This document shows positions 15,254-64,000 of a stretch of 64,000 nucleotides of DNA, piece by piece. Under the pieces are notes generated by a model. That model was not told the DNA's origin. It was given only the letters and a program-made list of their open reading frames with translations, and made no database searches. The stretch is from the sequence record PZ386969.1; one strand, written 5' to 3'. Source of the stretch: a phage. Each line of letters begins with the position of its first letter. The first letter of the stretch is position 1. The position numbers and the translations under genes are program-made.

Positions 15254-15282
15254 ATATTAGGCGATTATTTCTTGAAAGTAAA
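15254..15282 (-). promoter_or_regulatory. early promoter C (-35 TTTACT, 17-nt spacer, -10 TAATAT)
   Basis: Minus strand ACTTTACTTTCAAGAAATAATCGCCTAATATTT upstream of the gene starting at 15222. Confidence 0.45.
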
Positions 15283-31323: not shown

Positions 31324-32934
31324 ATGTTAGACAATATGAGATGGTTTTACGGCACCGTTGAAGATGTCAACGATCCAGACCAAAACGGGCGCGTCGCCGT
31401 CCGCATCTATGGCGTACACACCGACGATCCCGTCCTCCTGCCTACAGACAAACTCCCGTGGGCGAAGGTACTGATGCCTGCTTCTAACGCCTCCTCTGCT
31501 GGTTTAGGTTGGTCTCCAACGGGTATCATTCCTGGTACTGAGGTTATGGGGTTCGCCCTTGACGAAGCATACCAGAATTTACGCATCACCTGGACTTGGA
31601 CTGGTTCAAGTCCTACTGATGGCGCCGACACAAACCCACTGGCTCTCGGGCAGGTCGTTCAATCTGTAGAACGTCAGGCGTACAACGCTGTCACTGACGT
31701 TCCTGTGAAACAAGAAGACGAACCACAACCAGATCCACAACCACCTGTTGGTGGGTATGATCCAGAGAAGTGGATGACAATCGCTCGTGGCGAATTAGGT
31801 ATCAAGGAGTATGCCGGAAAGTTCAACAACAACCCGCGCATTATAGAATATCACAAGACAACCTCCCTTGGTGCTTCTGAAGATGAAGTGTCGTGGTGTG
31901 CGGCGTTCGTGGGTTGGGTTATGATACAGGCTGGATACACGTCTACACGCTCCGCTCTTGCCCGATCTTACCTTACATGGGGTACTGCACTGTCAGCACC
32001 ACAATATGGCGCTATCGTAGTCTTCCGGCGTGGTAACAACCCCACATTTGGACACGTAGCGTTTGTGCAGAAGTTCGATGCAAACTATGTCTGGTGTATT
32101 GGTGGCAACCAATCCGATTCAGTGAAGGTCAGTCGTTTCAGACGTTCTTCGGTCTTGGGATATCGTTGGCCTGGTCCTGCTAACACAGCCACAGCCGCGC
32201 CTGCGCAGCAGAATGGTAAATGGTCAGAACCTATCCCAGATCGTACCCCAAAGGAACAACCGACTCCGGCTCCTACTGGGCGAGTACAGGATATTGACAA
32301 CACTGGAGAAACCATGGTTCCGGCTGCGGGTGGATCTAAATACCCGTACAATAACGTCATGGTGTCCCGAGCTGGGCATATTATGGAAGTGGACGACACC
32401 CCTGGTGGTGAACGTCTTCACTGGATGCATAAGTCTGGGTCTTACAAGCAAATGTTGCCGGATGGTGATGTGGTCAACAAGTCCGTCAAAGACCACTATG
32501 ACCTGACGATGTTCAACAAGCGTTATTATGTCGGCGGGGACCACAACCTGACGGTCAAAGGAACTGAAGTTCAGCGCAAGACAGGTGAGGTCTATCATTT
32601 GCATTCCAACAATTACTCCAACGTGGTTGCGGGCACAGCGCTGATGAAATTCAGTGACCTAGCGGAAATGCAAGCGCAGAATATTCTGCGCATTATCTGC
32701 GAGACTCTGGAGGTCGGTGGGACATTGAAGGTTCCTAAGATTCTAACGACTGAGATAATCGCTGACAAACTGACTGTCGCTCAGACGATCAATGGTAACA
32801 TCATATATGCCGAAGGTGCTGGTCGCGCTTCTTCTCTGTCAGGTGCAACCCCTGCATCCCCTACGGGTCCGGGTGAGATTGACATCAAGGCAGAATTAAA
32901 AGACAATGGTGGTAATTTCGGCACCAAAGAGTAA
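31324..32934 (+). CDS. baseplate central spike protein (gp5-like) with CHAP/NlpC-P60-type peptidase domain
   Basis: N-terminal gp5-type OB motif FYGTVEDVNDPDQNGRVAVRIYGVHTDD; central Cys/His peptidase motifs (EVSWCAAFVGWV; GHVAFV); 536 aa. Confidence 0.7.
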   Translation: MLDNMRWFYGTVEDVNDPDQNGRVAVRIYGVHTDDPVLLPTDKLPWAKVLMPASNASSAGLGWSPTGIIPGTEVMGFALDEAYQNLRITWTWTGSSPTDGADTNPLALGQVVQSVERQAYNAVTDVPVKQEDEPQPDPQPPVGGYDPEKWMTIARGELGIKEYAGKFNNNPRIIEYHKTTSLGASEDEVSWCAAFVGWVMIQAGYTSTRSALARSYLTWGTALSAPQYGAIVVFRRGNNPTFGHVAFVQKFDANYVWCIGGNQSDSVKVSRFRRSSVLGYRWPGPANTATAAPAQQNGKWSEPIPDRTPKEQPTPAPTGRVQDIDNTGETMVPAAGGSKYPYNNVMVSRAGHIMEVDDTPGGERLHWMHKSGSYKQMLPDGDVVNKSVKDHYDLTMFNKRYYVGGDHNLTVKGTEVQRKTGEVYHLHSNNYSNVVAGTALMKFSDLAEMQAQNILRIICETLEVGGTLKVPKILTTEIIADKLTVAQTINGNIIYAEGAGRASSLSGATPASPTGPGEIDIKAELKDNGGNFGTKE

Positions 32935-34504: not shown

Positions 34505-34533
34505 AGTATAAGCGCAGGGATTATAGAAGTAAA
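34505..34533 (-). promoter_or_regulatory. early promoter A (-35 TTTACT, 17-nt spacer, -10 TATACT)
   Basis: Minus strand reads GCTTTACTTCTATAATCCCTGCGCTTATACTTC about 45 nt upstream of the ATG at 34453; -35 overlaps the upstream terminator tail. Confidence 0.5.
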
Positions 34534-39571: not shown

Positions 39572-40366
39572 TTAACTGAAACTCTTGTATGCTGCTGCGA
39601 GCTTCTTGTCGTACTGGTTCTTGGCATACGCCGGACCATTATAGCGCCGTGCAAATTCAGACCAGTTCTTGTCCTTCAGAGCCTGCCAGAGCTTGGCGTC
39701 AGCCTTGATGAACTTCACGAATGCCATCAAATGAGCACGTTCTCCTGTCAGGAAGTCGTTGAACATCTCCTTGGCGTTGGCATATCCACAGACCTGGCAG
39801 TTGAATCCCATGATCTGGAAGAGACCGTAAGAGGCACTCTCGTACGCACAATCCTCGTCGATGTTGATCGCTGCATGAAGTCGATCCAACTCCGCGTCAC
39901 CACCCGTGTACCCGCCTGCGGAAGGACTGACCAACGTCGGGTACATATGTCCCATGGCATTCGCCCGAGCCTGTCCGAACTTCGCCGTCAGCTTCTTATA
40001 CATGATGTGGCGCTCAAATAATGTCTTGATCTTACCTGACTTGGTGAAGCCCGTACCGCGTGACTCAACCTGATTCACCGCCTTGGCAGAGGCGAGGTCA
40101 ACACCCAGATCGTTAGCAGCATCAATCAGGTCTGATTCAGTTAGATGATCCTGATGGGCGTCTCCGGCGTTGCGAATAGCATAGGAGGTCTTTGGACCTA
40201 CGATACCATCAATGACAAGCCCCGCACCCGCCTGAACAGTCTTGACAGCGTTCTCTGTTGCCTTGCCAAAGATACCATCAGCGACGAGGGTGAAGCCGAT
40301 TTTGTTGAGGCTATTCTGAAGTGCCTTCACTTCAGTGCCACGGTTGCCAAGTTTTAGAATGGCCAT
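39572..40366 (-). CDS. endolysin (N-terminal peptidoglycan-binding domain, C-terminal muramidase-like domain)
   Basis: Start moved to ATG (MAILKLGN) with GGAGG RBS; PG-binding repeat (GFTLVADGIFGKATENAV...DGIVGPKT); C-terminal ESASYGLFQIMGFN motif. Confidence 0.7.
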   Translation of the reverse strand: MAILKLGNRGTEVKALQNSLNKIGFTLVADGIFGKATENAVKTVQAGAGLVIDGIVGPKTSYAIRNAGDAHQDHLTESDLIDAANDLGVDLASAKAVNQVESRGTGFTKSGKIKTLFERHIMYKKLTAKFGQARANAMGHMYPTLVSPSAGGYTGGDAELDRLHAAINIDEDCAYESASYGLFQIMGFNCQVCGYANAKEMFNDFLTGERAHLMAFVKFIKADAKLWQALKDKNWSEFARRYNGPAYAKNQYDKKLAAAYKSFS

Positions 40367-40395
40367 AAGAAATACCTCCACAATGAGTGCAGAGG

Positions 40396-41098: not shown

Positions 41099-41165
41099 AT
41101 AATAGTGCGCTATTATTGAATAGTAAAGTCTTTTCAATAAATTTTTAAAATATTTTTGAAATATT
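41099..41165 (-). promoter_or_regulatory. early promoter D with A/T-rich upstream element
   Basis: Minus strand GACTTTACT-17 nt-TATTAT, preceded by an A/T-rich run (TTAAAATATTTCAAAAATATTTTAAAAATTTATTG); drives the gene starting at 41026. Confidence 0.45.
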
Positions 41166-46961: not shown

Positions 46962-46990
46962 AGTATAGGGAAGGATATTGAAGAAGTAAA
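46962..46990 (-). promoter_or_regulatory. early promoter B (-35 TTTACT, 17-nt spacer, -10 TATACT)
   Basis: Minus strand CCTTTACTTCTTCAATATCCTTCCCTATACTTC; same architecture and near-identical downstream leader as promoter A. Confidence 0.5.
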
Positions 46991-54711: not shown

Positions 54712-56426
54712 ACCTCAAACACGGCATCAGTGAACCAAGCGGGGAAGAACTCTGGGTTGCGCATCATCAGTGATTCGAAAGAAGAATCAAGGATGTACGT
54801 CGCAGCCCAGTCATTCACGCCCCTGACCGAACGCCCACACATCTGAACGATACGCAGTACCGCCATCCTGAAGTACGCCGATGGGTCCACACTGTTGACG
54901 TGGGCCACCAGAGGATCACCAAGGTAATCGTATGGCACCTTGATCAAGATCTGAAATCGACTATAATCGCCTTTGAAGTCATACCCCTCTTCCATGGCCG
55001 GACTGGCGATGACACAAGGCGTCTTCGTCCTGAACGCGTGTTCCATGATGTCCATCAGAGCCTTACGAGTACGAGGAACGTGAATCATATTCCGGTACTT
55101 ACTGAACTTTTGTAGAGCCAGGGCGCGGTCATAACTGACTGTGTGAATGATGCCAGACTGTCCAGGGTGGAACGCGATAATTTCATCCACGTATTCAGCC
55201 AGCTTCTTCATCTCGTAGTCACCCATGTTCGCTGTCATCTTCATGATGGGCATGTAGTTGACTTTCCGGTTCTCAATCGGGATAGGGTTGCCGATCTGTA
55301 TCTTGTGGTACTCACCCTCGCGGATACCCAGTGACCGGGCGTACGAGTCAATCCCGCAAATGGTAGCCGACATGTGGACGTGGTAGTCACCCTTGCGGAA
55401 CAGGCCGAACTGGGATACATCAGAGGCGATGACAGGCTTGAACTGAATCATACCCTTGTCCTTCTCCTGTACGATGAAAGTGCTGGCGTTGGTCTGTCCC
55501 ATGATACCACAGTAGTCGCTGAGGTTGTGAAGATTATCAATAATATCAGACAGCTTCATCACCTGGGCTTCAGTCAGGCGCTCGTCCTCTACCAGTTCCT
55601 CAAGAGTTTCCAACAGGGCTTCAACCTTGCCGTGTAGTTCATCAAATATCGCATGCATCTCACCAGACAGGGAATACAGCTTGCCCAATTCATAGTTCTC
55701 TGTGCGGATGATGATATCCTTGATGGTCTCCACGATAGGCACTCCCTCGGGGATCGTAAGCAACCCTTCCACAGCCTTTATGTTGTATTCCATGATAGTA
55801 TGCTCTAGGAGCGTAGAGGGCATTTTATGACACTCGTCAAGGATCAGCATATCGGCACGGTTTTCCGGCTTCATACAAATCGTCGTACACATCTCCACCA
55901 TCATGGCGGCGTTGGTGCAGCGCAGGGAGGAGACGTCGGTCCACTGTCGACGCGCCTGAACATATGGGCAACGATTCTTACTACAGTGGCCATCACGGCA
56001 TGCCATACGGCACTGAATGGCGTTGTAGTACAGGTCGGGGCTGATATGACAACGATAATTCTTCTTGCCCTTCAGAATGTCTATCGCCACGGCTTTCTCT
56101 GCTGCATACTGATCCTGTAAACCTTTGGTCGGCGTCGTGATAGACGTGCGGAACTGACCATACGGGTTGTGCTCAAGAACCAAATGGCGAAGCACATTAT
56201 GGATGGTAGTGCCGATGAGGGATTTACCTACACCAGTCGGAGCCTCGATGATCACGTGTTTGAATTTCTTATTCACAAGGGCATCAATGGCTTCAACGAT
56301 GCATTCCATCTGGCCGGGGTTGGCGGTGTCATACGGGAAGAACTCAGTGGCAAGAGACTTGATGCGGTCTATGCTGACTGGTCCGACGCCGTCAAGCGCC
56401 TTGGTATATTGGTTGAATGCTGTCAC
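54708..56426 (-). CDS. DinG/XPD (Rad3)-family Fe-S DNA helicase
   Basis: GTG start with TAGGAGGAAGAAA RBS; Walker A APTGVGKS, DECH box (LDECHKM), four-Cys cluster (CHISPD...CRMACRDGHC...CPY) typical of the Fe-S domain. Confidence 0.7.
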   Translation of the reverse strand: MTAFNQYTKALDGVGPVSIDRIKSLATEFFPYDTANPGQMECIVEAIDALVNKKFKHVIIEAPTGVGKSLIGTTIHNVLRHLVLEHNPYGQFRTSITTPTKGLQDQYAAEKAVAIDILKGKKNYRCHISPDLYYNAIQCRMACRDGHCSKNRCPYVQARRQWTDVSSLRCTNAAMMVEMCTTICMKPENRADMLILDECHKMPSTLLEHTIMEYNIKAVEGLLTIPEGVPIVETIKDIIIRTENYELGKLYSLSGEMHAIFDELHGKVEALLETLEELVEDERLTEAQVMKLSDIIDNLHNLSDYCGIMGQTNASTFIVQEKDKGMIQFKPVIASDVSQFGLFRKGDYHVHMSATICGIDSYARSLGIREGEYHKIQIGNPIPIENRKVNYMPIMKMTANMGDYEMKKLAEYVDEIIAFHPGQSGIIHTVSYDRALALQKFSKYRNMIHVPRTRKALMDIMEHAFRTKTPCVIASPAMEEGYDFKGDYSRFQILIKVPYDYLGDPLVAHVNSVDPSAYFRMAVLRIVQMCGRSVRGVNDWAATYILDSSFESLMMRNPEFFPAWFTDAVFEV

Positions 56427-56474
56427 TTTCTTCCTCCTATGGGATTCGCCTATAGTTTACCCGATCCCCAAGAA

Positions 56475-56505
56475 CGAAAAAGCCGGAGTACAATGCTCCG
56501 GCTTT
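56475..56505 (-). terminator. intrinsic terminator (after HU-like gene)
   Basis: Minus strand AAAGCCGGAGCATTGTACTCCGGCTTTTTCG. Confidence 0.65.
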
Positions 56506-56554
56506 CTCTTTGCCATGCCCTGTATTGCAGAGCCTGGCCGCGCGTCAGATAGAA

Positions 56555-56833
56555 TTACTTGCCGTTGGCAGCGTTCTTCAGACCTTCGCCCACTTTGAAT
56601 TTCACAACGTTTTTCGCCGCGATCTGAATGGTCTGGCCGTCCAGAGGGTTGCGGCCTTCACGCGCTTCTTGGTGTTTCACTTCGAACGCACCGAAGCCGA
56701 CCAGCTGTACAGATGCGCCTGCAGCAACTGCAGTCTTAACACCGTTGATAAAGGATGCCACTACTTTCTCCGCTTCGCCTTTGGTGATGTTCTGGGTCGA
56801 AGCAATGTGGGCAACAAATTCAGTACGATTCAT
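56555..56833 (-). CDS. HU/IHF-family histone-like DNA-binding protein
   Basis: 92 aa; near-canonical HU signature (VQLVGFGAFEVKHQEAREGRNPLDGQTIQIAAKNV). Confidence 0.9.
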   Translation of the reverse strand: MNRTEFVAHIASTQNITKGEAEKVVASFINGVKTAVAAGASVQLVGFGAFEVKHQEAREGRNPLDGQTIQIAAKNVVKFKVGEGLKNAANGK

Positions 56834-56923
56834 CTGGATTTCTCCGTTGGGTTAATGTTTACTTTCATGTTCACTACAAGAGGACTACAGTTTAACTAAC
56901 AAATTTTATTGAATAAAGCGGAA

Positions 56924-57175
56924 TTAATAGCCTTTCGCCACGTCTTCAGTCGTCATCGTGCCATAACATCCACAGCGTTCACAAATCACTCTGACGCAAG
57001 GCTTAAAAGTCTGAATATTAGTCACAGGAACGTTCACCACCTTTGAAGAAACCTGCATTTCGCGGACTTCAACCCGTTGTTCGGCCAGGCGCTCATCGTC
57101 CAAGAAGGTGATCGTCTTGTGAGGACAACGCATTGACGATTCACCAACCCAGATTATTGCCATGTTGGGACTCAT
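56924..57175 (-). CDS. small Cys-containing protein (possible zinc finger)
   Basis: 83 aa with RCPHK...CVRVICERCGC. Confidence 0.4.
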   Translation of the reverse strand: MSPNMAIIWVGESSMRCPHKTITFLDDERLAEQRVEVREMQVSSKVVNVPVTNIQTFKPCVRVICERCGCYGTMTTEDVAKGY

Positions 57176-57468
57176 GATTTGACCTCCGATTTGGAGATTA
57201 ACGATTCCATCTCCTGACGACCAATGACAGTCTCAACTTTGTCTTCTTCAACCATCATTTCATTCAGAAGATCGTACCCCAGGACTTGTACACCAAAAGA
57301 CTTTTTGTTCAGTTCTGCCTCAATATTGAGAACTCGCTGAACCGTCAGGCCACCGGAAGAGAACGGTACTGGATAGAAGGCGGAACGCACTTGGACACAC
57401 CCATTTACGCTGTAACGAACCAGCAAGACATCACACCATACACCAGCCATATTATACCTCCACCGCAT
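57172..57468 (-). CDS. hypothetical protein
   Basis: 98-aa ORF overlapping neighbours at both ends. Confidence 0.4.
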   Translation of the reverse strand: MRWRYNMAGVWCDVLLVRYSVNGCVQVRSAFYPVPFSSGGLTVQRVLNIEAELNKKSFGVQVLGYDLLNEMMVEEDKVETVIGRQEMESLISKSEVKS

Positions 57469-58114
57469 GAGACTTCAGGAGTTCATCAATCTCTTTCTGT
57501 CCCATGTATGAGAACGGGGTGCGCTGGTAGAACGCCCAGAGTACTAACTGGACAACAGCACGGGAACGGGTTTCGGCCGTCATCACCAGGCCACTGAAAT
57601 GAGGAGACTCAGCTGTCCATTGTATCTCTTCGCCCAGGTCTTGATTACAGGTCACCGAGATGCGGAACTTGTTGCACAGATTGTCGACTTCTTTGTACGC
57701 ATCGGTAGACACACGAAGTTGTTCCGCATGTGCCCACGGAGTTGTGACGATTCTTTCACCCATCACTTTATCAGAGATAAACCAATCAATACATTCGGTA
57801 AACTCACTAAAATGGTCGATACGATAAATGCAGTCTCCCCCTTCCATAGAACGCATGGCATGATAGCGAGCGTCGATTTCGTTGTTGTGCATAGCGTTGA
57901 AGTCGATGAACACGCGACGCGCCAGCACAACATCTTCTGGTTGAAGTGCCAGGAAATCGTTCAGGCGGCTATAATGGAGGATATTGGAACCGTCGTGGTC
58001 ACGTGTGCAATATGCGTAATGGCTACCGATACGGGCGTGGGCAATATAAGACAACGGGGCGAAGAATAATCCGTCAGGATCAGGACCGACGATAATAGAA
58101 TAAAGTTTTTCCAT
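57452..58114 (-). CDS. hypothetical protein
   Basis: ORF track start is TTG; start at ATG (MEKLYSI) preceded by GAGAGACTATATC. Confidence 0.45.
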   Translation of the reverse strand: MEKLYSIIVGPDPDGLFFAPLSYIAHARIGSHYAYCTRDHDGSNILHYSRLNDFLALQPEDVVLARRVFIDFNAMHNNEIDARYHAMRSMEGGDCIYRIDHFSEFTECIDWFISDKVMGERIVTTPWAHAEQLRVSTDAYKEVDNLCNKFRISVTCNQDLGEEIQWTAESPHFSGLVMTAETRSRAVVQLVLWAFYQRTPFSYMGQKEIDELLKSHAVEV

Positions 58115-58170
58115 GATATAGTCTCTCAAATGAAAGGGCAGCTTTATGATAAGCCGCCCGAGGTTATTGA

Positions 58171-59040
58171 TTATTGGAAATCGCCAACATACATGTTCAG
58201 CTTGTCATCCCAATTCAGAACGACACGGATCGTTCCAGTATCTTCTGGGAAGGTCAGTTTGTCACACATGGCGCGATTAACATAAGTCCCACTCTGGTTC
58301 ACGTTGTAGTCCTTGCCTTGCATGATACCAAAACGCTTGAAGTCGCGAGTGACCATCATGTTCAGAGTTGTCCAAGGGATTGCATCGCGCAGGGCTTTGC
58401 ACAGGACGATCTTGCCATCCGACCTGAACGACACAAACAGCTCGTTGGCGACACGACGGCGAGTAGGCGGTTCAAGTTCACGCAGGGAAATGAATTGTGA
58501 ATTCTTTACCTTTTCTGCCAGCGTCTGTACTTCTGCTGGATCCGGCTTGAACGGCTCCACTGAAGAGTCAGACTTCATCACAACGTCACCCTTGCGCTTC
58601 TCGACCAATTGCTCCACAGCCTTTTGACTCACGGGTGGGAGGTATTTGGACTCAGGAACAACCGCTGGCTTGATGACAGGGCTTGCATCTGGTTTCGCCT
58701 TTGGGGTACTCCGAGCCGCACGCAGCTTTTCCTGGGCTTCCAGAATGCGCTCTTGACGAGAAAGCGGAGCCTTTGGGGTGATCTTCGTACTGAAGTCAGA
58801 AACTCCGACCCAGTCACCCTGGTCATTACGCTTGGCGACCAGAGTCAGTTTGTGGATGATACCCTGAAGTTTGCTCTCACGCAAGTTGTCGGCATACCAG
58901 AACTTCGCGCCCATCTCGAACTTCTCGGCGAAGATCACGCGAGCGTCTTCGTGTACCAACATAACTTTGGCTGCGTTGGGGGCAAAAGCCTTATTCTTTT
59001 CGATAATCGCCGCAGCGATTGTTTTGGTCAGGAGCATCAC
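58171..59040 (-). CDS. hypothetical protein
   Basis: 289 aa; two globular parts joined by a Pro/Lys-rich linker. Confidence 0.45.
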   Translation of the reverse strand: MMLLTKTIAAAIIEKNKAFAPNAAKVMLVHEDARVIFAEKFEMGAKFWYADNLRESKLQGIIHKLTLVAKRNDQGDWVGVSDFSTKITPKAPLSRQERILEAQEKLRAARSTPKAKPDASPVIKPAVVPESKYLPPVSQKAVEQLVEKRKGDVVMKSDSSVEPFKPDPAEVQTLAEKVKNSQFISLRELEPPTRRRVANELFVSFRSDGKIVLCKALRDAIPWTTLNMMVTRDFKRFGIMQGKDYNVNQSGTYVNRAMCDKLTFPEDTGTIRVVLNWDDKLNMYVGDFQ

Positions 59041-59076
59041 AGTGTATTCCTTCAGTTCACAATGTAGGGCTAAATT

Positions 59077-59403
59077 TTAACCCGAAACTTTATTTTGAAA
59101 TCCGACAAAGTCCTGGGCAATCCCCCGGCAATACATCAGGTCTTTCTTCGTTTGTGGACTGTTATCAGCCGCAGTCAGCATCATGGGAAGATCCAGCGCA
59201 TTCTCTATCTGATCAACACTGAACAGATCAAGGCGCTTCAGCTCTCCCTCGAAGTCAGACAGTAGGATAGATGTGTCTTTGTCATCTGGGTGGAACTGCT
59301 GATACGTCTCCATCCACGCCACACATGTGTTCAGTTTGGACGGTGGCGCGGCGTTTACACACCCGGCTATCAGTACCAACAAGAGCAGGATTTTACATTT
59401 CAT
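59077..59403 (-). CDS. lipoprotein (outer-membrane-type signal, lipobox LIAGC)
   Basis: ORF track start is GTG; ATG start; MKCKILLLLVLIAGCVNA signal with lipobox Cys; one-base overlap with the upstream stop. Confidence 0.5.
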   Translation of the reverse strand: MKCKILLLLVLIAGCVNAAPPSKLNTCVAWMETYQQFHPDDKDTSILLSDFEGELKRLDLFSVDQIENALDLPMMLTAADNSPQTKKDLMYCRGIAQDFVGFQNKVSG

Positions 59404-60089
59404 CACTCGTTCTCCTTCATCATATTGTCGCAGTCAACACGAGTCTGCTGGAGTTCGCGCGACATGCGAGGATCATCAAGGTTCACGCTCAGATTCGTGG
59501 CCAGGTCTTTCAGACCGTTCTGAACCCTGTCTTCAAAGTAATAATCGTTCTCCACCAACCATGCCCTGAGGCCGAGGGCGCGGGTGCGCCATTCCTTCTT
59601 CAGGACGCGATCAGAGGTCTGCGTGGCGCTGTATTCGAATACTTTGACGCACTGGTTGCCATCGTTGATGAGGTTCAGGTGACGGCGGCCTATCTGCACA
59701 CCCTTCTGTAATGCCGGAGAAGGGAGCGAACGGCACTGTCTTACGGTCATTCGGCCTTGGGTGCCCATACGCCCAGTCATGATCAAATCGCCAGCCTCCA
59801 TGCCTCCACGGTTAAATTCGTCGTCATTGAGGTAGCCCTTGAGGTTATAGGCTCCCTGTTTGTAACGGTTGAACTCAATTCCGGCATTGACGACAGCAGT
59901 GGAGACGTTGCCTGTGTTCCAGAGTTCAGCGAAGTTCTCTATGGAACCAGACTTGTCGATGGCAACCGCCTGGGAGAACCCAGCACAATAGGAAAGGTCG
60001 GACCACAGTTTATCACCTGTGGAGTTCAGCTTGGCAGCGGCGGGTAATGCCAGACCAGCCAGCACAACCCCGAGGATTAAACGTTTCAT
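59403..60089 (-). CDS. secreted/periplasmic protein (signal peptide)
   Basis: ORF 59403..60254; start moved to ATG (MKRLILGVVLAGLALPAAA) with GGAGAA RBS; Sec-type signal peptide. Confidence 0.45.
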   Translation of the reverse strand: MKRLILGVVLAGLALPAAAKLNSTGDKLWSDLSYCAGFSQAVAIDKSGSIENFAELWNTGNVSTAVVNAGIEFNRYKQGAYNLKGYLNDDEFNRGGMEAGDLIMTGRMGTQGRMTVRQCRSLPSPALQKGVQIGRRHLNLINDGNQCVKVFEYSATQTSDRVLKKEWRTRALGLRAWLVENDYYFEDRVQNGLKDLATNLSVNLDDPRMSRELQQTRVDCDNMMKENE

Positions 60090-60168
60090 GGTGATTCTCC
60101 TTATTTCATTGGATGAAATGATAGGCGGCTCACCATGATGAGTAAAGGGTTTCAATAAACTATCGTAT

Positions 60169-60618
60169 TCAGAAACGGGTATCGCTGACCGTTCTGTATC
60201 GCACACCCTGAAACTGTTTAGCGAGTTTAACAAATTCCATCGCTGGCAAATCAACTTTGTAGACCTTCATGCGCTGTTTGCCGTCCATGTTCAACGCAGC
60301 GACAAATCGGTGAGAACCGTCAACAACGTAATTGTCAGAAGACACCCAAACTCGACCCATAGGTTTCTTATTTCTGATCTGCTTCATAATCTTCCAGACC
60401 TTCATTTTATTGATTTCGTTCTGGGTAAGACGAAGCATTTTGATGGGCACTTGCACAGCATCTATGGACACGCCGTTGTCTTCAAGATATTTGTGAAAAT
60501 CTTCTTGTTTGTCGGCATCGATTTGCGGCATAGAAGAACGCGAAAGCCCGAGGTTCCCAACAGGGATCCTCAGGCCGTTAATGATGTTCAACCAGTCAAT
60601 AAAGGATGTAAGGAACAT
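60169..60618 (-). CDS. ParB/sulfiredoxin-fold nuclease-like domain protein
   Basis: Segment YVVDGSHRFVAA resembles the ParB-like nuclease DGxHR core; 149 aa. Confidence 0.4.
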   Translation of the reverse strand: MFLTSFIDWLNIINGLRIPVGNLGLSRSSMPQIDADKQEDFHKYLEDNGVSIDAVQVPIKMLRLTQNEINKMKVWKIMKQIRNKKPMGRVWVSSDNYVVDGSHRFVAALNMDGKQRMKVYKVDLPAMEFVKLAKQFQGVRYRTVSDTRF

Positions 60619-60650
60619 GACACACCTCGGGATATAGGGTTATCCCTTAG

Positions 60651-60842
60651 TTAGCGCATCCATCGATCCTTTCTCTCTTTCTCCTTGCGTTCGCGACGTT
60701 TCTGGTCGGATCGGAATAACCAATAGAAGAAGTTCCCACCCAAGATGAAAACCACCGCGATTATTACTAGGACACCCTTCACAATTTCCCAAACCAATTC
60801 TTTATCCAAATTATACCTCGTCTTCTTCAGGTCTACCGTCAA
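60651..60842 (-). CDS. small membrane protein
   Basis: TM helix VLVIIAVVFILGGNFFYWLF followed by a highly basic tail. Confidence 0.35.
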   Translation of the reverse strand: MTVDLKKTRYNLDKELVWEIVKGVLVIIAVVFILGGNFFYWLFRSDQKRRERKEKERKDRWMR

Positions 60843-61098
60843 TCAGGATACGAGCAGTGTCGAAACCTTCCCCGCCCGTGTTCAACAGCTTGGTCAGATC
60901 ATCAAGAGTATAGACAGGACCAAGATCAGCCTGGCGAAGAACGAACTCGAGAAGCCCGTAGAGCGCCGATTGGAATCGGGAGTTGTCGATGTCGTTCTTG
61001 ACTTCCATCAGGCGGACAACATTGGCAGACTGGACATAACTCAGCTGAGTCTTACCTTTCACCATGACTTTCACGGAACGGCGTTGTTCAGGCGTCAT
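60811..61098 (-). CDS. hypothetical protein
   Basis: 95-aa ORF overlapping neighbours at both ends. Confidence 0.35.
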   Translation of the reverse strand: MTPEQRRSVKVMVKGKTQLSYVQSANVVRLMEVKNDIDNSRFQSALYGLLEFVLRQADLGPVYTLDDLTKLLNTGGEGFDTARILIDGRPEEDEV

Positions 61099-61473
61099 AA
61101 TGTTCCACCCCCGACAGAGATCAAGAACTCTTCTTGCATGGTCTTGACCGGGTGGTGGTTGCGGGTTTCGAACATGAAGCCCCAGCCACCGTCGGCGACG
61201 TTGCCAAAGGTCTTGACACCAAAGGACTTCGTCCCGTTGGAGCAGGAATAGATGTCCAGGACGTATGGGCTACCCTGATTGTCGATCCCACGATTCACGT
61301 CGTCTGATACGCAGCGCTCAATCATCTTCCCGTTCTTATACAGAACGAGGTCTTGACCATACGCCTTGAAAGCATAAACACCGTTGGTAGACACCCCAGT
61401 GATGACAGGAGGGGCGGAAACAGCAGCAAAGGAAGCTCCCAGCAGGGCAACAGCGAGGATTAACTTTTTCATG
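61095..61473 (-). CDS. secreted protein (signal peptide)
   Basis: ORF 61095..61517; start moved to ATG (MKKLILAVALLGASFAAVSA) preceded by AGAGACTATATC. Confidence 0.45.
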
Positions 61474-61531
61474 ATATAGTCTCTTGGTTTCAAATGGGCG
61501 GGGTAATCATACCCCACCCAAAGTTATAGAA

Positions 61532-61771
61532 TTAACTGATGTGCTTCAGAAGAGCGAAGAGGATCGCGGCCTTGGCCTTTACCTTTCCCACGATGCCTGT
61601 CTCGACATCAACTTCTTCAGCAACCCACTCCTTTCCCTTCTTGCTGATGATCACGTCACGGCGCTGGGCATATACCTCTTTGGTCGCATACACGCGGCGG
61701 AATCCTTTGGCGCGGAGCAAGCCCCAATTACGATCAATTTCTACTGAGGTTTCTACCATTTTGTTCTTCAT
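61532..61771 (-). CDS. hypothetical protein
   Basis: 79-aa basic protein; ATG preceded by AGATTATATC; early promoter upstream. Confidence 0.4.
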   Translation of the reverse strand: MKNKMVETSVEIDRNWGLLRAKGFRRVYATKEVYAQRRDVIISKKGKEWVAEEVDVETGIVGKVKAKAAILFALLKHIS

Positions 61772-61822
61772 GATATAATCTTACCTTTCAACCCGGTGAA
61801 CCCATCGTTCGCCAGTTATTGA

Positions 61823-61852
61823 ATAATACGCATTTACCTTATAGAAGTAAAC
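61823..61852 (-). promoter_or_regulatory. early promoter F (-35 GTTTAC, about 18-nt spacer, -10 TATTAT)
   Basis: Minus strand GGGGTTTACTTCTATAAGGTAAATGCGTATTAT directly after the terminator of the ACP-like gene. Confidence 0.4.
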
Positions 61853-61860
61853 CCCTAAAG

Positions 61861-61885
61861 TAAAAATTCCCAACGTTTGTTGGGG
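61861..61885 (-). terminator. intrinsic terminator (after ACP-like gene)
   Basis: Minus strand CCCCAACAAACGTTGGG followed by AATTTTTA. Confidence 0.6.
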
Positions 61886-61892
61886 ACTTCTG

Positions 61893-62216
61893 TTATTTGC
61901 GCAGGGCAACCACGAGTTCAGCGAGTTCACCCATGGTCGGGTCATCGCCTTTACTACCCAGCCAACCGTCGTCGATTTCGACCTGAAACTCTTCTTCTAG
62001 TTCCATTACGATTTCGATGGCATCCAGTTCATCACCGCCGAGGTCTTTCTTGGTACGGAGGCCAGCCAGCTTGTCCAGGGCGTCCTCGTTTTGAGATGCC
62101 ACGTCGTCCAGCAATTTGCGCTTGTCATCGTCACGCCACAGATCCATATTCAGATTGTCAGTGGCGTACTGAGCCAGATGACGCATGACTTCAACATATG
62201 TTGGTTTACTGCTCAT
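61893..62216 (-). CDS. acyl-carrier-protein-like protein with Glu in place of the phosphopantetheine-attachment Ser
   Basis: C-terminal region DLGGDELDAIEIVMELEEEFQVEI matches the ACP core [20 protein letters not shown] except DSL is DEL (GAT GAA CTG GAT in the DNA); 45-aa N-terminal extension. Confidence 0.55.
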   Translation of the reverse strand: MSSKPTYVEVMRHLAQYATDNLNMDLWRDDDKRKLLDDVASQNEDALDKLAGLRTKKDLGGDELDAIEIVMELEEEFQVEIDDGWLGSKGDDPTMGELAELVVALRK

Positions 62217-62226
62217 GTTATTACTC

Positions 62227-62252
62227 CAAAGAAAGGCGGGTTGCCCCGCCCG
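62227..62252 (-). terminator. intrinsic terminator (after 565-aa gene)
   Basis: GC-rich hairpin (GGCGGG/CCCGCC) followed by TTTCTTTGG on the minus strand. Confidence 0.5.
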
Positions 62253-62257
62253 TTGGA

Positions 62258-63955
62258 TTAGATTTTGATTTCTTTCTCTGTCAGTTCGGCAGTGACCTTG
62301 TACTTCACGCCATCCACTTCAACTTCCATGGTGGACTCTTCCAGGTCGAGGTCGGTGAACCAGCCATGGCCAGCAACGATACCATAAACCACTTTAGACA
62401 GCGTCTTGTTAAGGGCACGGACTTCGGTGATGGCCGCCTTGGCAGCAGCGTCGATCCAGTTTTCGATCAGCTGTTTCTGTAAGGCTTCAGGCACGGCAGT
62501 GATCATAGGAGACTTCACGAATGCTTCGTACTCCTTCAGCGCATTGGCGATGAACAAGTCACCAGCATTGAGTTTCTTGTTCTCGGCAATCTTCTTCTGT
62601 ACCGCTGCGATAGACGGTAGAGAAGAAGCGCCAGCGATCTTAACGTTCAGCTCACGGCTCATGTAGAAGTCGGTAGACTCTTTGGTCTCAGTCTTCGGTG
62701 AGAAGCCGTAATCGCGGATGCCGTAGGAGGACAGGAACTCGGCCGCCTCAGCGCCGTACTGTACTGCCAGGCCTTTGGCGTTACCTTTACCAACCAGGGC
62801 GTCTCGATAGAACTTCAGCACCTTCTGCTTGCCTTTCAGGGCTTCCAAACGGACATTATCCGCAAAGAACTGAGCAGCACTGATGTTCTTGACCATGGCA
62901 CGGTTGACCAGCGGTACGCTTTCCAGGTTCAGGATGAACACTTCCGGACCACCGAACACATGAACACCCATCTCGATCAGCTTCTGTACAACTTCGATAT
63001 CAGCCTTGAACGGCAGAGTCTTCACGTTAATGATACCGTCTTTGACGATGGTATAGTTGCGCCACTGGAAAGTATCCAGTTCTTCAGGCAGGCCAAACTT
63101 CTTCTGTGCGAATTCAGGCACAGCCACAGTACCGTGTTGAATTGTACGCACACTGATGTTCGGGCGCTCGGAGTTATAGACCAAATCACTGATTGGCACA
63201 ACACCCAGATCGTTGGTAGGTTCGAACGTCGGGTTCCACTCTTCGTGTTCTGCCAGCTTGAGAGCCAGGGCTTTACGCTCTTCTTTGGACTGAGCATTCG
63301 CGATCTGTTCTGCCAGCTTGTCTTCGGTGTCGTCGGTTTTCTGCACAGTACCGCGCCCGATACTCTTATAGGAGAACATCGGATGCTTGGTAGCAACAGG
63401 CACACCAGCTTCAGCCAGGTACGTCAGCACATCAACGACGGTGGTCGCGTCTTCGGCCGGAACCAGGTCATAGTCAATACCGTCAACACCACGCAGCTGG
63501 TCGTCAACAATCGCCTGTACCAGATCGTTCTTGATGTTGGAGTAGTCCTGCTTGGTGAAGCAGTTGCTGTACTGTTTGATGAAGCGAACGTCACCCGTTT
63601 TCTTCAGCGCAGCCCAAACCAGATCTGCGTCCATAGTGTGTACACCGTAGAACGCCAGCACGTATGCCGCCTGGATATCCGCCAGCGCATCAAGCTGGTC
63701 GATCATGTTAGGATCGACGACCCACAGCTTCGTGACGCTCTCAGGGATGCTCACGTGGCCGATAGGATGATCTTCATCCGGCTGTACCGCCAGCACGGTC
63801 GCCGCGCCGTTTTCAACATAGATGGCGTGGGTGTATAGCAGGGGTACATCAACAACTACTTTCGGTACAGAAGACTTCAGTACGTTTTCCAGCTCGGTCT
63901 GATATTCGGTCTGGCCTTCGGCGAAAACGTGGGTTGCACCAGATCGTTCGGCCAT
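62258..63955 (-). CDS. hypothetical protein (565 aa; 5' end may extend past the ORF-track start)
   Basis: Long ORF ending with an intrinsic terminator; no P-loop or catalytic motif recognised; start lies 45 nt from the window edge. Confidence 0.45.
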   Translation of the reverse strand: MAERSGATHVFAEGQTEYQTELENVLKSSVPKVVVDVPLLYTHAIYVENGAATVLAVQPDEDHPIGHVSIPESVTKLWVVDPNMIDQLDALADIQAAYVLAFYGVHTMDADLVWAALKKTGDVRFIKQYSNCFTKQDYSNIKNDLVQAIVDDQLRGVDGIDYDLVPAEDATTVVDVLTYLAEAGVPVATKHPMFSYKSIGRGTVQKTDDTEDKLAEQIANAQSKEERKALALKLAEHEEWNPTFEPTNDLGVVPISDLVYNSERPNISVRTIQHGTVAVPEFAQKKFGLPEELDTFQWRNYTIVKDGIINVKTLPFKADIEVVQKLIEMGVHVFGGPEVFILNLESVPLVNRAMVKNISAAQFFADNVRLEALKGKQKVLKFYRDALVGKGNAKGLAVQYGAEAAEFLSSYGIRDYGFSPKTETKESTDFYMSRELNVKIAGASSLPSIAAVQKKIAENKKLNAGDLFIANALKEYEAFVKSPMITAVPEALQKQLIENWIDAAAKAAITEVRALNKTLSKVVYGIVAGHGWFTDLDLEESTMEVEVDGVKYKVTAELTEKEIKI

Positions 63956-64000
63956 CTGCGCCAGCAGTTCGCGGTTACAGTGCCAGCCGTATTCGATGAA

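Follow-up and report, generated by a model that had tools for sequence, protein, structure and literature searches.

A conserved gene pair of Ackermannviridae phages labeled as spanins is predicted to encode two translationally coupled periplasmic proteins

Introduction

The gene pair analyzed here, which we call A and B, lies in a 64,000-nucleotide stretch of phage DNA (sequence record PZ386969.1; this whole stretch is termed the window, and its numbering is used throughout), and its products are labeled as a two-component spanin in public records. The lambda spanins accumulate without harm until the cell wall is degraded. Like the lambda Rz/Rz1-type spanins of overlapped architecture (PMC6139136), A and B are adjacent overlapping genes with an N-terminal hydrophobic segment on the first product and, in the window, a lipobox plus a residue for outer-membrane sorting on the second product and periplasmic cysteines in both. 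Unlike Rz/Rz1, A appears to have a cleavable-type signal instead of a type II anchor and lacks long coiled coils, the lipobox of B is not conserved, B is modeled as a folded helical bundle, and the promoter is of a non-late type. A and B also differ from other spanin families in lacking any sequence relation to them, and the homologous pair of Salmonella phage Marshall stands as a singleton.

Other exported phage proteins offer partial parallels. T4 Spackle (gp61.3) inhibits the incoming tail lysozyme in the periplasm; it is a small, secreted, helical protein with a precursor of about 100 residues and an internal disulfide, and its gene, expressed early, lies between genes for replication. B is likewise predicted to be small, secreted, and helical with an internal disulfide and to act in the periplasm, and its gene lies amid the replication genes of a T4-like myovirus, but PHROG and tblastn matches of B were confined to Ackermannviridae, and its fold matches included no Spackle chain. 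The tail hub encoded in the window has a CHAP domain and not a lysozyme. A and B may be analogous to Spackle in role, not in ancestry. The T5 Llp and Cor-type lipoproteins resemble A and B in being small, phage-encoded, exported proteins with pre-lysis expression, and a lipid anchor is predicted for B in some lineages. In contrast to Llp and Cor, with which it shares no homology, B has a predicted lipid anchor that is dispensable across its family, is coupled to a larger periplasmic protein, and has no known protein receptor to act upon. The T4 antiholin RI is similar to B in its small, helical periplasmic domain, and the phage family of B also carries rIIA and rIIB. Unlike RI, however, B is without the signal-arrest-release-type weakly hydrophobic N terminus, no T-type holin was detected, and the two proteins gave no sequence match.

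The genes and the idea that they encode spanins were already present in databases and the literature. New here are family-level evidence that the spanin label fails on defining features and evidence that the lipobox of B looks like a lineage-specific gain.

Results

The initial annotation described an overlapping gene pair joined by a one-base stop/start overlap, and both open reading frames were found in this arrangement, on the minus strand, which that annotation had left unmentioned. Gene A (60089..59403, minus strand) encodes a predicted secreted periplasmic protein of 228 residues; the 229 residues given initially correspond to 229 codons including the stop. Gene B (59403..59077, minus strand) encodes a predicted exported protein of 108 residues from its ATG, or of 109 residues from an alternative GTG start one codon upstream. 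The A stop codon (TGA, 59405..59403) and the B start codon (ATG, 59403..59401) have one base in common in the sequence TGATG (59401..59405, minus strand). A Shine-Dalgarno sequence for gene B, AAGGAG (59412..59417, minus strand), can be read within A codons K225-E226, and alignment of homologues showed residues K225, E226, and N227 of A, the region holding this element, to be invariant. The TGATG overlap is predicted to couple translation of A and B.

The pair is confined to one phage family and is strictly maintained within it. The window belongs to an Ackermannviridae phage and is ~99% identical to Escherichia phages LHE287 and AV101. The pair region is 98-99% identical to those of Escherichia phages LHE287, AV101, and ZQ1 and 93-95% identical to those of Salmonella phages Marshall and Maynard and Shigella phage Ag3, all of which are Ackermannviridae. 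More than 200 phage genomes carry homologues of A, and tblastn found homologues of B in 282 phage records, every one of these 282 belonging to Ackermannviridae of Enterobacterales. An exhaustive profile search with A against 1.8 billion representative proteins returned only 10 matches. Three distant matches (~30-35% identity) were traced to Ackermannviridae-like contigs of ~35-160 kb with the same synteny, in which a gene for a 150-residue ParB-like protein is followed by A, B, an HU gene, and a helicase gene. We did not find a homologue of either protein outside Ackermannviridae by profile search or tblastn, and searches of Pfam, NCBIfam, PADLOC, and PDB sequences gave no match for A, B, or neighboring proteins. 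Every locus examined, L003, L004, and L005 included, retained an overlap of 1 or 4 bases, down to 30-35% identity. The ratio of nonsynonymous to synonymous substitution rates (dN/dS) was ~0.05 for A against Limestonevirus, Kuttervirus, and Klebsiella phage homologues and ~0.05 for B against its Limestonevirus homologue, the remaining B pairs being saturated in dS. A and B are real genes under strong purifying selection and not chance open reading frames, and their distribution indicates that they constitute a core, lineage-specific gene pair of Ackermannviridae myoviruses. The available part of the Sajous1 virion proteome table does not list the pair.

The N terminus of A begins with MKRLILGVVLAGLALPAAA, followed by KLNSTG. 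Residues 1-19 (60033..60089, minus strand) form a predicted signal peptide composed of an n-region (MKR), a 12-residue h-region, and the sequence P-A-A-A, which places alanines at positions -3 and -1. In the alignment of homologues, P16, A17, and A19 are invariant and the residues of the h-region vary. Distant homologues of A have textbook signal peptides ending in STSAWS/E, FHASA/A, and STANA/G (slashes mark predicted cleavage positions). When insertion energy was summed on the Hessa scale over the best 19-residue window, homologues of A gave +3 to +6 kcal/mol; the same sum gave +2.4 for the OmpA signal, +3.0 for the Lpp signal, and -2.5 for the lambda Rz anchor. Due to the 12-residue h-region and the invariant A-x-A, we read the N terminus of A as a short cleavable-type signal peptide rather than a retained type II inner-membrane anchor, in keeping with the Sec-type signal proposed initially.

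Following its signal, A is laid out as an N-domain (residues ~20-140) and a helical C-domain (residues ~145-228), with four invariant cysteines (C35, C119, C147, and C220). Residues 20-144 are rich in glycine (8.6% of mature A) and contain no Pro/Gly-free stretch of at least 18 residues. Predicted helices are confined to residues 145-228 in an AlphaFold2 model, in which the N-domain has low confidence; this model, made from 24 close homologues, had a predicted local distance difference test (pLDDT) score of 45, which is too low to support a fold search. A and lambda Rz were not distinguished by a crude heptad score for coiled coils, and this score is unused as evidence. Polar residues that are invariant across distant homologues are few (S, D, and the cysteines), with many Gly and Ala residues beside them. 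In Serratia-type Ackermannviridae (loci L005, L023, and L024), A has only 126 residues, comprising the N-domain and a short Cys-containing tail. This short A (6001..6381 in L005) is without the helical C-domain and is still overlapped by B, suggesting that the C-domain is dispensable or supplied elsewhere in these phages. Whether the short form tracks loss of the CHAP domain from the tail hub proved uninformative, as this domain is present and highly conserved throughout. We also considered the C-domain of A (59403..59666) as a paralogue of mature B (59077..59340), which show a weak collinear likeness (an N-x-C-V start, a middle L-D-x-P-x-M, and a Cys near the end), but the hhalign comparison was insignificant (P = 0.018, probability 2.5%) and we do not claim this relation.

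For B, the initial annotation proposed a 108-residue lipoprotein with the lipobox LIAGC; the length and motif held, and lipoprotein status is a prediction that fails for most of the family. B begins with MKCKILLLLVLIAGC, followed by VNA/APPSKLN. Its predicted export signal (residues 1-18; 59350..59403, minus strand) contains the lipobox I-A-G-C and then a signal-peptidase I site, V-N-A/A-P. The codon of the lipobox residue Cys15 is at 59359..59361, and the +2 residue is Val, from which outer-membrane sorting is predicted. A strict lipobox was found in 6 of ~46 B clusters (90% identity), all from the window lineage (at least 93% identity), together with one sporadic homologue, P0076. The remaining clusters have A-x-A sites and no Cys, with signals ending in YVAGAYA/AP in Limestonevirus, SFQVMA/TP or SSQVLA/AP in Vi01-type phages, ANHALA/VP in Klebsiella phages, GAAQA/AG in Serratia phages, TASA/QP in Erwinia phage Bue1, and SVLA/TP or VARA/DE in metagenomic relatives. 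Because the lipobox Cys aligns with a Gly of Limestonevirus-type relatives and the ancestral V-N-A/A-P site is kept three residues on, the lipobox in the window looks like a recent, lineage-specific gain through a single Gly-to-Cys substitution. Gain and loss appear to be recurrent: P0076, from a 2.7-kb metagenomic contig of another lineage, has an independent IISSC ahead of its A-x-A site, and in homologue P0037, from the window lineage, the lipobox Cys is replaced by Ser (LMAGS rather than LMAGC).

In contrast to its signal, the mature domain of B is nearly invariant, as in the stretch LNxCxAWxxTYQQFHPDDKDTSILLSDFEGELKRLDL, and includes two invariant cysteines, C27 and C92. An AlphaFold2 model of B had a mean pLDDT of 81.6 (~90 over residues 21-100), and the 90 residues of mature B were modeled as a compact five-helix bundle. 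With 5% Pro in B, the model argues that mature B is neither an extended nor a proline-rich tether. A fold search with B found no relatives in the PDB, and BFVD gave one Ackermannviridae protein only. Across the family, the alignments indicate an export signal that drifts between three forms (lipobox, classic A-x-A, and long hydrophobic) and a mature domain that is frozen. Since the signal forms drift while the mature domain does not, the function would need the periplasmic mature domains and no particular tether, and a tether that is not conserved is incompatible with a machine fixed in both membranes. Both A and B have the features of Sec-exported proteins, with an n-h-c signal, small residues at -3 and -1, and conserved cysteines in the mature part, from which localization to the periplasm is predicted.

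These properties bear on the spanin label, the origin of which we traced. The Center for Phage Technology annotation of Marshall names gp94 "i-spanin" and gp95 "o-spanin." B matches phrog_3843 (PHROG 3843), labeled "Rz-like spanin," and A matches phrog_4260, to which no function is assigned. The members of PHROG 3843 are the same Ackermannviridae family as B, so that its label traces to annotation, and RefSeq places "Rz-like spanin" on many relatives of B. The core genes of Vi01-like phages include the pair as "Rz-like spanin" and "putative i-spanin" (PMC10892097). In the literature examined, we found no experimental support for spanin function; papers only carry the label forward, and a supplementary table for phage AG3 lists both genes merely as "hypothetical."

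Kongari et al. (2018) placed both Marshall proteins in singleton families of SpaninDataBase, and the combined periplasmic length of the Marshall pair, 300 residues, was the longest among all two-component spanins (PMC6139136). The same study listed Maynard, Vi01, SFP10, SJ2, SJ3, phiSboM-AG3, CBA120, ECML-4, PhaxI, and RC-2014 as spanin-less (PMC6139136). We found homologues of A and B in 8 of these 10 phages; SFP10 and ECML-4 were not among the search outputs. Because Marshall is a singleton and relatives bearing homologues were listed as spanin-less, the spanin call is an isolated annotation and not a family-level finding. Tables 3, 4, and 10 of that study are inconsistent in that Marshall is counted with a spanin and the nearly identical Maynard is given as spanin-less (PMC6139136), an inconsistency that annotation pipelines later settled wrongly.

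A two-component spanin pair is encoded by adjacent genes that are embedded, overlapped, or separated, and the one-base overlap of A and B conforms to this arrangement. An i-spanin must keep its N-terminal transmembrane segment as an anchor, and its periplasmic domain must be largely coiled coil (PMC6139136). At the sequence level, the N terminus of A is not such an anchor, and its periplasmic part does not consist of long alpha-helices or coiled coils, with the caveat that the N-domain model is of low confidence. An o-spanin is a lipobox lipoprotein; the B family as a whole is not, as the motif is present in the window allele, where lipidation is a prediction, and missing from most orthologues. 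The short unstructured or proline-rich periplasmic segment that is typical of o-spanins, though not universal among them, is also missing from B, and neither protein has a Pfam or NCBIfam match that would place it in a known spanin family. When the complete AV101 genome was scanned for lipoboxes in six frames, only B and one 216-residue open reading frame came up, which suggests that Ackermannviridae have no other canonical spanin candidate. We rejected the 216-residue protein as a unimolecular spanin, as it has no C-terminal transmembrane domain. Its gene, which is outside the window, is at 113876..114526 in AV101 (L029 13876..14526, plus strand) and lies beside, and on the strand opposite to, the tail completion gene; in Yersinia phage CAU_YEP3, it bears the name "lipoprotein."

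A promoter scan placed a sigma-70-type promoter, TTTACT-N17-TATCAT (60118..60146, minus strand), directly upstream of gene A. This intergenic stretch is better conserved across genera than flanking codons, and Klebsiella phages have TTTACT-N17-TACTAT at the same promoter, keeping TAnnnT. The window contains 7 occurrences of the motif TTTACT-N16-18-TAnnnT versus 0.46 expected, in every case on the minus strand, which is the coding strand of a leftward block. The sites, with N17 spacing, are at 15282..15254, 34533..34505, 41127..41099, 46990..46962, 60146..60118, 61851..61823, and, overlapping the latter, 61864..61836. Most are behind a terminator-like hairpin and all are 25-60 nucleotides ahead of an ATG, features pointing to a real class of promoters with sigma-70 architecture. 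Two sites of this class share an upstream TTATTGAAA-N3 element. These phages use the late motif TATAAATA with gp55 and gp33 homologues (PMC3121705), and we found no T4-type late motif with at most one mismatch in 55543-64000.

A and B are located within a long run of leftward genes for replication and recombination. The endolysin gene (39572..40381, minus strand; PG_binding_1 and N-acetylmuramidase PF11860) is 19 kb away beside PhoH and primase genes, and no holin or spanin gene adjoins it. Downstream of B by 36 nucleotides, with no terminator between, is a 289-residue open reading frame (58171..59040, minus strand; phrog_3828, function unassigned) that lacks a signal peptide and is probably cotranscribed with A and B. 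Its adjacency is lost in distant phages, making a functional link weak. A terminator-like hairpin (58136..58159, minus strand), with a 9-bp stem containing 6 GC pairs and followed by a T-rich tail, may close the transcription unit of A, B, and the 289-residue open reading frame.

Just before A and B, a second set of apparently envelope-targeted proteins is encoded in an upstream transcription unit (61851..60172, minus strand) with its start at the 61851 promoter. Its products are a 79-residue protein, a 125-residue signal-peptide protein (61472..61095; phrog_5474), a 95-residue protein, a 63-residue single-pass membrane protein (60842..60654; phrog_14464), and a 149-residue ParB-like protein (60618..60172). 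The 125-residue protein had been reported initially at 61095..61473, which is one base off; the open reading frame itself (125 residues plus stop) is as described. Elsewhere in the window, the gp5-like baseplate hub gene (31324..32934, plus strand) encodes Gp5 OB and CHAP peptidase domains and no lysozyme domain, despite the name "tail lysozyme" in records. The hub CHAP domain is ~90% conserved across Ackermannviridae genera and also occurs in Vibrio phage ICP1 and Rhizobium phages.

Discussion

We tentatively favor a reading in which A and B form a translationally coupled, disulfide-stabilized, Sec-exported periplasmic pair, probably with an exclusion-like role in envelope protection; the function is inferred, and we regard this reading as plausible without being confident of it. 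Translational coupling would produce A and B in a fixed proportion, with expression from the sigma-70-type, non-late promoter probably preceding that of the late genes. The two proteins would then act jointly in the periplasm as a binding complex and not as enzymes or membrane fusogens, protecting the already-infected envelope from secondary attack, either by superinfection exclusion or by resistance to lysis from without. In the window lineage, a lipid may also anchor B in the outer membrane. Binding rather than catalysis is suggested because invariant polar residues in A are few and B is a small bundle, and non-late expression argues for a role during rather than at the end of infection. The initial annotation offered an exclusion module as its alternative, with which periplasmic export, the non-late promoter, and the appearance of binding proteins are compatible.

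Several points weigh against this reading. Neither protein resembles Spackle, Imm, Llp, Cor, or RI in sequence or fold, and apart from phrog_3843 and phrog_4260 themselves, no PHROG, Pfam, PADLOC, or PDB family resembles them. Exclusion genes are usually accessory, whereas A and B are core genes family-wide, which an essential step such as lysis would fit better. The poor model of A leaves room for an enzymatic fold, and cleavage of both signals and lipidation are predictions only. In addition, we found no Ackermannviridae transcriptome or gene-essentiality data in the literature, and the promoter class and the timing of expression are deduced from sequence.

A canonical two-component spanin, as the current database label has it, is a highly improbable description of A and B. 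The overlapping genes, the window lipobox with its +2 Val, the cysteines predicted to be periplasmic in both proteins, and the standing of B as the sole convincing lipobox gene of AV101 besides the 216-residue open reading frame all speak for it, as do the PHROG and RefSeq labels and the counting of Marshall gp94 and gp95 in SpaninDataBase. The non-late promoter and the 19 kb to the endolysin point the other way, although T4-like phages scatter their lysis genes, which weakens expression and linkage as evidence on spanin identity. The defining topology is also missing once the family is compared. The hydrophobic segment of A, with 12 residues and an invariant A-x-A, is of the signal-peptide type; its first 120 residues are glycine-rich without long helices; and its helical C-domain is missing in Serratia-type phages. 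Orthologues of B of the Vi01, LIMEstone, Klebsiella, Serratia, and Erwinia types lack the lipobox Cys despite a nearly invariant mature domain, which is modeled as a compact bundle and not as a tether. Thus, the spanin reading of the initial annotation agrees with public labels and loses its defining features at the family level, and the doubt expressed there, that A is not obviously coiled-coil, was justified. A function in lysis of a non-canonical kind, in which a soluble periplasmic pair replaces spanins or sets the timing of lysis, is unlikely. Such a pair might loosen tethers between the outer membrane and the wall after endolysin action, or bind the periplasmic domain of a holin in the manner of an antiholin. 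Core-gene conservation across the whole family, the failure to find another spanin candidate in it, the presence of RIIA and RIIB, and strongly conserved mature domains that imply a conserved partner are consistent with this proposal, as is the harmless build-up of lambda spanins before wall degradation. Opposing it are the lack of membrane anchors for force transmission or bilayer fusion, the lack of a late promoter, the lack of linkage to the endolysin gene or any holin candidate, and the lack of similarity to RI, T-holin, or disruptin families; A also has few conserved polar residues that would suggest catalysis. A bolder form of this proposal, that the "spanin-less" Ackermannviridae disrupt the outer membrane by means of A and B, or need the pair as an essential cofactor of lysis, with A and B acting as a soluble, anchor-independent complex, is quite unlikely; if true, spanins and disruptin-type peptides would be joined by a third route through the outer membrane.

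Instead of acting in lysis, A and B could remodel a receptor or the envelope from the periplasmic side in the manner of T5 Llp or Cor, or neutralize a host periplasmic or outer-membrane factor, a possibility that we consider unlikely. In one variant, they would bind a conserved envelope protein of Enterobacterales and thereby prevent loss of progeny on debris or aid takeover of the host. The restriction of the family to Ackermannviridae infecting Enterobacterales, the combination of export with a non-late promoter in a block shared with the exported and membrane proteins at 61472..61095 and 60842..60654, and the occasional gain of a lipid anchor, which suits an outer-membrane-proximal target, are in line with remodeling. 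However, neither protein is homologous to Llp or Cor, and the primary receptors of Ackermannviridae are polysaccharides that are cut by tailspikes, with no protein receptor established. The reading of A and B as a periplasmic pair with an exclusion-like function is the one that we retain as preferred.

The labels "Rz-like spanin" and "i-spanin" are being propagated for this pair across hundreds of Ackermannviridae genomes and in genome papers with a therapy focus, and they rest on the lipobox of one lineage and on a signal peptide taken for a transmembrane helix. Without the label, a large, therapy-relevant phage family again has no recognizable spanin, and how its members breach the outer membrane needs explaining. 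In B, a secreted protein appears to have gained a lipoprotein signal via a single Gly-to-Cys change, which makes it a neat, small-scale example of such a gain. Together, A and B would represent a strictly conserved, orphan, cotranslated periplasmic pair of Ackermannviridae that is a candidate for exclusion or for an outer-membrane step.

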